This document shows, one piece after another, positions 12,401-39,343 of a DNA stretch of 48,552 bases (the stretch's first letter is position 1; each line of letters begins with the position of its first letter). This DNA is from an uncultured archaeon. Its GTDB lineage: Archaea; Asgardarchaeota; Lokiarchaeia; Sigyniarchaeales; SOKP01. The notes beneath the pieces are model-generated. The model saw only the letters and a program-made list of their open reading frames with translations. It had not been told where the DNA came from and did not search any database. Position numbers and translations under genes: made by a program. The DNA lies in the NCBI GenBank assembly GCA_964447495.1, contig CAYUTF010000019.1, positions 1 through 48,552 on the forward strand. Reading direction: 5' to 3'.

Positions 12401-12603
12401 TGTGAATCCTCTAAGCTTTTTTTTATAGTTATTTTTTAAATATAAATTATTTGAACTACACATTTTTTAGTATATTACTAATCTTGAAAGGGTAACTTCC
12501 CTTCAATAAACATTGGACTAAAGATCATTTTAGTATCGATTACCCTATATTAAACTTAAGGATTATAACCATATAAAATTGAAAAATAATAGAGGTAAGT
12601 TAA

Positions 12604-36851: not shown

Positions 36852-37061
36852 GGGCCATTAGCTCAGTTATCACCGAGAGCTTATCTCGCCAACTGAAATG
36901 GTTAACAAGGTTTAAAACAAGCTTGGTCAACAAGCGCAGGTCTTATAAATGGCATACAGACATACAAAATTAAGGATTTGTCTGTATTTAGTAAAAACCT
37001 GAGATCCGGGGTTCAAAATGATCAATCCTAAAGATTGAACATGAAATTCCCCGATGGCCCA
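36852..37061 (+). tRNA. tRNA-Ile(UAU) with four introns (36869-36898, 36905-36931, 36949-36996, 37018-37047)
   Basis: Acceptor GGGCCAU/AUGGCCC plus A73, anticodon stem CAGGU/ACCUG with loop CU-UAU-AA, short variable loop AGAUC and T stem CGGGG/CCCCG. BHB helices UCAG/CUGA, UGGU/GUCA, UUAU/GUAA and UUCA/UGAA give a 75-nt cloverleaf. Confidence 0.82.
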
Positions 37062-37851: not shown

Positions 37852-39228
37852 TTATTTTTGAGTAATTTGAAAATAGACTTTTTCAAGCCTCTCGACAGCA
37901 GAAGTTATATCTTGTTTTGTTGACCCAATCGCAGCATTCATGACTATATAAGGAGTTGAATAATCAATACAACATGTTCCAAATGTATCTTCACTTGGAT
38001 TAAATACTCTTGGACCCGTCACCCTCATATTATAAAGGGCGCCTCCAAGTGCGGTTAATTTTTCTATTTTTATGTTTTTTAGTGTCATAGCAACTGCTAC
38101 TGGGTTAAAAATACTTAATAAGCGTTCATTGACTTTTTCAGCTAAATTTCTCAACTTCTCTTCTAAAATTTTTCTATTTTGTTGTTGATCTTTTAATAAT
38201 TTATTGTAGCCATTAATTCCTAAAGAAAGCATTGAGATTAAAAAGTTTACAATAGGAGTAGCTGATGCACGTCCTGCGTAAGCTTGGCTTATTTTTGTCA
38301 ATATTTCTTCGTTTGGAGATCCAATAATAGCTCCTCCTACAGGAGTGAGAGCATTTTTATCAGTTGATTGAATAACAGCATCTACCCTTCCAGCATCAAT
38401 TGCACTTCTAATTAATTTCATCCATTCTGGACTTTGAACACCATACGCATTTATGACAATATGATTTAAACCTTTTTCTTGAGCAAATTTACTAATTTCC
38501 TTAATATCGTCATGTTCTCGAGGGGGAAAAAAACTTGTTATAGAGATTACTGCAAAACAATCTTCATCATAACTCTTTATAATATCCTCGATAGGAACTC
38601 TAACCGCATCTCCATAAATTTTTCCTCTTATAATTTTAGGGGTTGTTCCCATTAAATTTAATGCTTTCAAGATAGATTTATGGTCTATTTGAGGAACTAA
38701 TACCTTTCTTTTTCGAAGCATATCATTATTATTCCAATCTGGCTTAAGAGCTCCCAAACATAATGCTAAGGACATTCCCGTACAAAGTGGGCTAACAATT
38801 GCTTTTTTTATATTAGGTAAACCGAAATTTCTAAGAAAATCCCGAGCCAAATAATTTACGATTTCATACATTATTGAGCCCCCCGGAGCTTTTGGTTGGG
38901 CGGCAGTTAAATATCCACTTCTACCCACTCCATGACAAAATCCGGCACTGGTGAGTAGGTGGAGTTTAGACGCGATTCTTGCCTCTCTTTCTCCTACACG
39001 TGATGCTTTATCATCTTTATCTGTATCCATATTCGAAAGTGTTTGCAATAAATATTTAATTTGTTCATCAGTCCAAGAATCCATAGGGATGCTTTTTTGT
39101 TCAAATAGAATTTTCATAGGTTTCAGAAAATTATCTAAAACCATGCTTCCTCGATTTAGCATATTCTGAGGGATAGGAGTATTTTCAAAATAATTAATTA
39201 TATTGTTAAAATCAACCAAAACTATCAC
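37852..39228 (-). CDS. spcS: O-phosphoseryl-tRNA(Sec) selenium transferase (SepSecS)
   Basis: GEREARI, HGVGRSG, QPKAPGGS, TGMS, NAYGVQ, GRVDA.IQSTDKN (PLP Lys), Y.GRAS and AAIG. Adjacent to tRNA-Sec. Confidence 0.95.
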   Translation of the reverse strand: MIVLVDFNNIINYFENTPIPQNMLNRGSMVLDNFLKPMKILFEQKSIPMDSWTDEQIKYLLQTLSNMDTDKDDKASRVGEREARIASKLHLLTSAGFCHGVGRSGYLTAAQPKAPGGSIMYEIVNYLARDFLRNFGLPNIKKAIVSPLCTGMSLALCLGALKPDWNNNDMLRKRKVLVPQIDHKSILKALNLMGTTPKIIRGKIYGDAVRVPIEDIIKSYDEDCFAVISITSFFPPREHDDIKEISKFAQEKGLNHIVINAYGVQSPEWMKLIRSAIDAGRVDAVIQSTDKNALTPVGGAIIGSPNEEILTKISQAYAGRASATPIVNFLISMLSLGINGYNKLLKDQQQNRKILEEKLRNLAEKVNERLLSIFNPVAVAMTLKNIKIEKLTALGGALYNMRVTGPRVFNPSEDTFGTCCIDYSTPYIVMNAAIGSTKQDITSAVERLEKVYFQITQK

Positions 39229-39250
39229 TATTTTTTATTTTTAAGGATAA

Positions 39251-39343
39251 TGGCGGCCCTCGAGGAGAATCGAACTCCTATCCCTCCGCAGGATAACTAG
39301 GTTTGAAGCCTAGCGTCAGAGACCACTCCGACCGTCAAGGGCC
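39251..39343 (-). tRNA. selC: tRNA-Sec(UCA), 9/4 fold, CCA encoded
   Basis: GGCCCUUGA/UCGAGGGCC 9-bp acceptor, GUCGGAG/CUCUGAC 7-bp D stem with 4-nt loop, GCUAGG/CCUAGU 6-bp anticodon stem, UCA anticodon, long variable arm, GGAG/CUCC 4-bp T stem and GCCA end. Confidence 0.96.

Follow-up and report, generated by a model that had tools for sequence, protein, structure and literature searches.

Most archaea read the codon AUA via tRNA-Ile2(CAU), which carries agmatidine introduced by the enzyme TiaS. To our knowledge, the genetic code has just one place, AUA/AUG, at which two amino acids are told apart by a single wobble base, and the fixes for this have been thought to be domain-specific: lysidine in bacteria, agmatidine in archaea and inosine or pseudouridine in eukaryotes. 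For the eukaryotic tRNA-Ile(UAU), the formation of pseudouridine depends on the intron of the tRNA and on Pus1.

Within the archaea, exceptions have been described. For ARMAN-2, ARMAN-4 and ARMAN-5, a tRNA-Ile with the anticodon UAU has been reported together with the lack of TiaS and of tRNA-Ile(CAU), which was viewed by the authors as a replacement of the agmatidine route (Fujishima et al., 2011, PMC3239211). Here, the tRNA gene is described with one 25-nt intron of strict motif at position 37/38, in an organism with an epsilon2 endonuclease and an ultrasmall genome (PMC3239211). In a survey of 167 archaeal genomes, only Nanoarchaeum equitans and Korarchaeum cryptofilum were reported to possess a UAU tRNA (PMC6000648), and this has been linked in the literature to the lack of tiaS (PMC6000648; PMC3575796).

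Outside the archaea, the eukaryotic cytosolic tRNA-Ile(UAU) is described as being read as pseudouridine-A-pseudouridine (PMC3575796; PMC8879553), and pseudouridine or inosine at position 34 is reported to serve AUA in eukaryotes (PMC3575796). For the tRNA-Ile2(UAU) of Mycoplasma mobile, mass spectrometry revealed an unmodified U34 (Taniguchi et al., 2013, PMC3575796). Two ways of avoiding the misreading of AUG are documented in these sources: in M. mobile, U34 is left unmodified and its partners are adapted, and in eukaryotes pseudouridine is used.

The tRNA genes of Asgard archaea have been described as heavily interrupted by multiple non-canonical bulge-helix-bulge (BHB) introns, often located in the D arm, which are missed by standard finders (PMC11291895; bioRxiv 10.64898/2026.10.13.758758). 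The accessible text of these two studies makes no mention of a UAU anticodon or of TiaS. Among the matches listed in full-text literature searches (in one case the 25 best of 455), no paper connected a UAU tRNA or the loss of TiaS to the Asgard archaea.

Here, a tRNA locus from a Loki-type Asgard archaeon (Promethearchaeia) is described. The window, i.e., the whole stretch of DNA analyzed with its 48,552 nucleotides, belongs to a metagenome-assembled genome of 3.8 Mb with a G+C content of 31%, a completeness of 98.4% and an estimated contamination of 3.75%. Judged from sequence, the locus is with high probability a functional chromosomal tRNA-Ile(UAU) gene, which would replace the agmatidine-modified tRNA-Ile2(CAU) in a TiaS-less lineage.

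Gene Anatomy and Predicted Splicing

The original prediction placed a tRNA-Ile with UAU anticodon at positions 36937-37001. These are the exact limits of the anticodon stem with its loop and intron and only a part of the gene, which in full spans 36852-37061 on the forward strand (210 nt) and whose D-loop and T-loop are also split by introns (Table 1). The elements named in the prediction, an anticodon loop C-T-TAT-A-A, a short variable loop (with a length of 5 nt), a GGGCC acceptor and A73, are all present, and so is the BHB helix TTAT/GTAA, in which the anticodon pairs with the 3' end of the intron. An intron at 38/39 had been proposed, which would leave the anticodon intact. The site itself is indistinguishable from 37/38 or 36/37, since the flanking bases are all A and the loop is identical in each case.

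Table 1. Exons and introns of the candidate tRNA-Ile(UAU) gene (positions within the window).
Feature	Position	Strand	Length	Description
Exon 1	36852..36868	+		Acceptor 5' strand GGGCCAT (pairs with 37054-37060), positions 8-9, D-stem 5' strand GCTC, start of D-loop
Intron 1	36869..36898	+	30 nt	D-loop; BHB-like, 4-bp helix TCAG/CTGA, 3-nt bulges, inner hairpin
Exon 2	36899..36904	+		TGGTTA, G18-G19 part of the D-loop; putative assignment
Intron 2	36905..36931	+	about 27 nt	Border of D-loop and D-stem; register uncertain
Exon 3	36932..36948	+		D-stem 3' strand AAGC, G26, anticodon-stem 5' strand CAGGT, loop CTTATAA; anticodon TAT at 36944-36946
Intron 3	36949..36996	+	48 nt	Anticodon loop, 38/39 or equally 37/38
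Exon 4	36997..37017	+		Anticodon-stem 3' strand ACCTG, variable loop AGATC (5 nt), T-stem CGGGG, T-loop TTCAAA
Intron 4	37018..37047	+	30 nt	T-loop at 59/60; strict BHB
Exon 5	37048..37061	+		Last T-loop base, T-stem 3' strand CCCCG, acceptor 3' strand ATGGCCC, A73 (discriminator A at 37061; CCA not encoded)

Joining of the exons results in a cloverleaf with a 7-bp acceptor stem, a D arm, a 5-bp anticodon stem with a 7-nt loop and a 5-bp T stem, in which U33, A37 and the T-loop TTCAAAT are found. The exons joined by coordinates were called as tRNA-Ile(tat) by ARAGORN in both models of the D-loop (76 nt and 75 nt). For the unspliced gene, no call was obtained by ARAGORN, either without introns or with an anticodon-loop intron, and the covariance model RF00005 gave no match at 36852-37061, neither at the gathering score nor at E<=10. 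The finders miss the unspliced gene because the D-loop and the T-loop are interrupted as well, and RF00005 models a tRNA without introns. The 210-nt precursor folds with -65.5 kcal/mol in comparison to -42.4 +/- 4.0 kcal/mol for 200 shuffled sequences (z = -5.77), none of which was as good. The acceptor, anticodon and T stems are all formed in this fold, each with an intron hairpin enclosed.

For the analysis of the introns, 30 genes (the own gene and 29 others) were aligned, among the matches listed from 65 genomes of the family. A further point of reference is G032, a closed 4.4-Mb genome of the same order and another family, which is without TiaS and possesses its own tRNA-Ile(UAU); this is interrupted only once, by an intron of 45 nt in the anticodon loop at the same site as intron 3. 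Intron 4 is the top-scoring BHB of the gene, with the helix TTCA/TGAA and the bulges AAA and ATT, flanked by one helix of 3 bp and one of 2 bp; it occurs in 10 of the 30 orthologs, the own gene among them, and its hairpin appears in computed folds. Intron 3 forms its helix TTAT/GTAA with the anticodon and displays a 5' bulge AAA and an inner hairpin of 8-9 bp. On its 3' side just two A lie opposite C32 and a clean 3-nt bulge is missing, so the motif is a relaxed one. This intron is found in all 30 orthologs with a length of 44-60 nt, and the pairing of its hairpin survives changes on both strands.

The D-loop is less clear-cut. Intron 1 is present in 12 of the 30 aligned orthologs and missing from 18; its motif was also scored in one ortholog (L009), and the helix is visible in the MFE and centroid folds. 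For intron 2, the BHB scorer found more than one register, all overlapping in a single G-U-rich helix, and two models are given, an insertion of this type (about 25 nt) being present in 30/30 orthologs of the family and missing from G032. In the first model, exon 2 would be assigned by analogy with the D-loops of the tRNA-Ile(GAU) of the same genome and of the tRNA-Ile(UAU) of G032. In the alternative model, the exon is the second copy at 36923-36931 instead of 36899-36904. The count is three or four introns, depending on whether the D-loop holds two introns or one 56-nt block, and the arrangement predicted as most likely is the one with four (Table 1). Both models leave the anticodon intact. 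An intron in the variable loop is found in 4/30 orthologs and not in the own gene.

The 3' part of intron 2 is nearly a repeat of the D-loop exon (TGGTTAACAAGG versus TGGTCAACAAGCG, window 36899-36935). The tRNA-Ile(GAU) gene of the genome (C54:20011-20126) has a D-arm intron, which is flanked by the direct repeat GTGGCTT. Such direct repeats at intron borders might bear on the arrival of the introns.

The runs of A on both sides of intron 3 permit, on paper, a splice register that yields another anticodon: CTTA joined to AAA would result in the loop CUUAAAA and thereby in UAA, an anticodon for leucine. This formal alternative is extremely improbable, since the cut would fall inside the 4-bp helix TTAT/GTAA and not in a bulge, and the variable loop has 5 nt here, in contrast to the long arm of tRNA-Leu. 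Furthermore, the genome already has long-arm UAA tRNAs, and in three orthologs the helix partner GTAA is changed to ATAA with the pairing to TTAT kept.

For the UAU register, the archaeal splicing endonuclease would cut the precursor of about 210 nt at the BHB motifs, and ligation of the exons would yield a tRNA of 75 or 76 nt. The genome contains two genes of the EndA family (PF01974) with about 206-208 codons each, on contigs C196 and C3, which is consistent with a broad-specificity alpha-beta (two-subunit) endonuclease. This type of endonuclease is reported to be able to cut non-canonical introns (PMC5829648).

Conservation and Genomic Neighborhood

By BLAST, the tRNA gene was matched in 65 of the 81 genomes of the family. 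All 30 aligned genes share the same anticodon-arm 15-mer and A73. Within a phylum-wide sample, the 15-base arm was detected, with at most one mismatch, in 50/51 other genomes of the family. Beyond the family it was found in 14/149 genomes, all with one mismatch, a rate similar to that of a reversed-pattern control. The other stems vary in a compensatory manner. Here, the acceptor occurs as GGGCCAT/ATGGCCC, GGTCCAT/ATGGACC, GGTCCAC/GTGGACC, GCTCCCG/CGGGAGC and GGTCCCG/CGGGACC and the T-stem as CGGGG/CCCCG, GGGGG/CCCCC and CCGGG/CCCGG; compensatory pairs are found at 2:71, 3:70, 6:67 and 7:66 of the acceptor and at 49:65 and 50:64 of the T-stem. In independent named Promethearchaeota MAGs, the anticodon-arm 15-mer lies at most 2.5 kb from the gene of SepSecS in 38 of 48 loci, and several of the ten non-syntenic loci are contigs that end before the SepSecS position.

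In the window, the SepSecS gene (458 codons, PF05889, E 2e-113) adjoins a tRNA-Sec gene (39255-39343, Rfam 57.7 bits), the pair occupying 37852-39343 on the reverse strand. The proximity of the tRNA-Ile(UAU) gene to the selenocysteine machinery is conserved.

Three or four introns, of which one has a relaxed and one an unclear motif, could also be expected of a decaying, non-functional tRNA gene, and the D stem of the own gene carries a C13-A22 mismatch where relatives with GCTT have a T13-A22 pair. Such a relic is nevertheless very unlikely: the arm persists in nearly every family genome of the phylum-wide sample and is syntenic in most loci, the anticodon arm is invariant and the stems are compensated. 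In the absence of both a UAU tRNA and TiaS, 3.3% of the codons would be left without a cognate reader. Moreover, heavy interruption of tRNAs is described as normal in genomes of this kind (PMC11291895; bioRxiv 10.64898/2026.10.13.758758).

TiaS and the tRNA Inventories

The tiaS gene was searched in the own genome by several means. For PF08489, the FLD domain of TiaS, no match was found, the control being positive in four reference archaea. The TCKD domain (PF22641) gave no match at E<=1, and neither did a four-domain TiaS from another Asgard genome used as query (E<=1). This absence extends to the order, where TiaS was detected in 0/41 genomes including the own one (own family 0/24; three other families 0/16).

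In a phylum sample of 201 Asgard genomes with a completeness of at least 85%, TiaS is present in 120. The TiaS-less genomes are concentrated in particular families: the own family (0/51), a second family of the order (0/4) and one of the class (0/1) as well as five families elsewhere in Asgard (0/4, 0/2, 0/7, 0/3 and 0/1). Nearly all other Asgard families possess the enzyme, for example in 52/55, 18/21 and 15/15 genomes. For the UAU and CAU tRNAs, the inventories outside the class are incomplete. In 25 genomes of TiaS-less families outside the order, a BLAST search with an intron-poor ortholog returned only unrelated tRNAs sharing the T arm. A TiaS-less genome (G041) gave 33 Rfam tRNA matches without UAU, and a TiaS-positive one (G201) gave 34 without UAU; both inventories are incomplete, and in G201 tRNA-Ile(GAU) was also undetected. 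Two closed genomes of other classes, G052 (TiaS-less, 2.8 Mb) and G077 (TiaS-positive, 3.6 Mb), yielded 16 and 14 tRNAs by Rfam, respectively; here, almost the whole tRNA set is hidden by introns.

For G041, ARAGORN called an Ile(tat) with an intron at 32/33 (L109, G041:C1, about 634681-634782). This candidate was rejected, as the locus is much better explained as a tRNA-Thr(GGU) that has U73 and whose variable loop is interrupted by about 28 nt; the UAU call is a false one that originates from a misplaced intron.

In the own genome, the sole CAU tRNA found on the chromosome is initiator-like (C27:28684-28819, locus L216). It starts with AGCGGGG and displays A1-U72 and GGG/CCC in the anticodon stem. 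This initiator-like tRNA has two introns, in the anticodon loop and the T-loop, and was missed by ARAGORN and Rfam. Neither ARAGORN nor Rfam nor any of four custom scans located an elongator tRNA-Met on the chromosomal contigs, and BLAST with a class-level tRNA, which proved to be an initiator, gave nothing credible beyond the initiator. The gene of the elongator is either unassembled or of unusual structure. An intron-aware scan recovers 41 of the 53 tRNAs detected by Rfam. The census is thus incomplete, and for this reason both the term "replaced" and the lack of a tRNA-Ile2(CAU) rest on the absence of TiaS. The search for a tRNA-Ile2(CAU) suggested by the original prediction is accordingly answered in part, with a single initiator-like CAU tRNA in an incomplete census.

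The tRNA-Ile(GAU) and the tRNA-Ile(UAU) of the genome differ in the acceptor, anticodon and T stems, which shows that the latter is not a recent copy of the former.

Contig C80 (locus L214, 1-15220) contains 16 (ARAGORN) to 22 (Rfam) intron-less tRNAs on one strand, among them a tRNA-Met(cat) and, at 12510-12582, a second tRNA-Ile(tat). Between the tRNA genes lie those of an HNH endonuclease and of phage-family proteins, one of them a methyltransferase, and the contig is probably a fragment of a virus or mobile element that was binned with the genome. Its tRNA-Ile(tat) was rejected as a cellular gene, since the contig is virus-like. Another family of the order has similar tRNA arrays with Ile(tat) or Met(cat) in two of its genomes (L075 and L081).

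Since the lineage lacks TiaS according to these searches, the UAU tRNA would take the place of the agmatidine-modified tRNA-Ile2(CAU). Instead of a replacement, the UAU tRNA could be a second reader of AUA beside a hidden, multi-intron tRNA-Ile2(CAU), whose C34 is modified by an enzyme unrelated to TiaS. The incomplete census, which also missed the elongator tRNA-Met, leaves room for such a tRNA, and a non-homologous C34-modifying enzyme would be invisible to homology searches. This scenario is nevertheless regarded as quite unlikely. We know of no precedent for a third enzyme in archaea that adapts C34 to AUA. The only chromosomal CAU tRNA found looks like an initiator, TiaS is missing across the whole order sample, and all TiaS-less archaea documented with a UAU tRNA are reported to be without tRNA-Ile(CAU) as well (PMC3239211).

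Usage and Meaning of AUA

AUA is by no means a rare codon in this genome. In 1344 long ORFs genome-wide, ATA amounts to 33.2 per 1000 codons and 32.5% of the isoleucine codons; it is the ninth commonest codon and outnumbers ATG. In the long ORFs of the window its share of the isoleucine codons is 35%, in agreement with the original prediction that ATA is common there.

The meaning of the codon was addressed using SepSecS and 47 orthologs. At the 15 ATA sites of SepSecS, ATT was found 191, ATA 135 and ATC 66 times, i.e., 392 of 669 aligned codons, and ATG was outside the ten commonest codons. At the 14 ATG sites, ATG was found in 352/647 aligned codons. Since the ATA columns are filled by ATT, ATA and ATC and not by ATG, AUA evolves as an isoleucine codon.

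A73 and A37 are known as identity elements for isoleucine from work on E. coli and yeast. Based on these identity features and on the codon evolution, the tRNA would be charged by IleRS, and its U34 would pair with the A of AUA. A change of the code as in mitochondria, with AUA read as methionine or AUA and AUG being equivalent, might be considered, since wobbling to G is possible for a U34 that is unmodified or of the xm5 type (PMC8879553 and general knowledge). With the distribution of codons in SepSecS described above and A as the discriminator base, a code change is hardly credible.

The suggestion that the TiaS system has been replaced or supplemented by a UAU tRNA is borne out, at the level of sequence, by the absence of TiaS from family and order, the near-universal presence of the tRNA in the family, the tRNA-Ile(UAU) of G032 and the isoleucine meaning of ATA, with replacement as the preferred reading.

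Comparison to Known Systems

The original prediction described the decoding as eukaryote-style. The data give no support to this label; the closest documented parallels are the TiaS-less archaea ARMAN, Nanoarchaeum and Korarchaeum and not eukaryotes. With the reported ARMAN system, the locus shares the archaeal host, the UAU anticodon, an anticodon-loop intron of BHB-like form and the lack of TiaS. In contrast to ARMAN, three or four introns, a relaxed motif in the anticodon loop and two EndA genes are found here, in a 3.8-Mb Asgard genome. The UAU gene of Korarchaeum is likewise reported to contain an intron; it is described as a near copy of the tRNA-Ile(GAU) of that organism, whereas the stems of the two tRNAs differ here, and the phyla differ. 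M. mobile has also lost its C34-modifying enzyme and uses UAU; it differs in being a bacterium and in the lack of an intron.

The eukaryotic tRNA-Ile(UAU) resembles the tRNA described here in its anticodon and in an anticodon-adjacent intron that pairs with the anticodon, and the host is kin to the archaeal ancestor of eukaryotes. In contrast to eukaryotes, the D-loop and T-loop introns are of the archaeal BHB type, and eukaryotes also use an inosine-34 tRNA. An anticodon-loop intron was found in every tRNA-Ile(UAU) examined, i.e., in 30/30 genes of the family and in G032, where it is the only intron. By analogy, the helix between anticodon and intron might be the substrate for a modification of U34 and/or U36 as in eukaryotes, and the eukaryotic way of reading AUA might predate the eukaryotes and have existed in Asgard archaea; this idea is tentative and rather unlikely. 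The genome contains a single gene of the TruA/Pus1 family (PF01416) and thus no dedicated extra Pus1-like paralogue. If the idea were true, a UAU tRNA with an obligatory intron would already have been present in Asgard archaea and would not be a later eukaryotic invention.

Conclusion

Since the solution of ARMAN, Nanoarchaeum and Korarchaeum is repeated here, no new mechanism is implied. What the findings suggest is that the archaeal fix for the reading of AUA was abandoned in an order-level, Loki-type branch of the Asgard archaea, which includes cultured strains. They also indicate that these genomes can decode more than standard tRNA finders report. A UAU tRNA together with a conserved anticodon intron is, formally, the eukaryotic arrangement. 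This branch would therefore offer a concrete, culturable system for asking how U34 avoids AUG and whether the intron matters for this.
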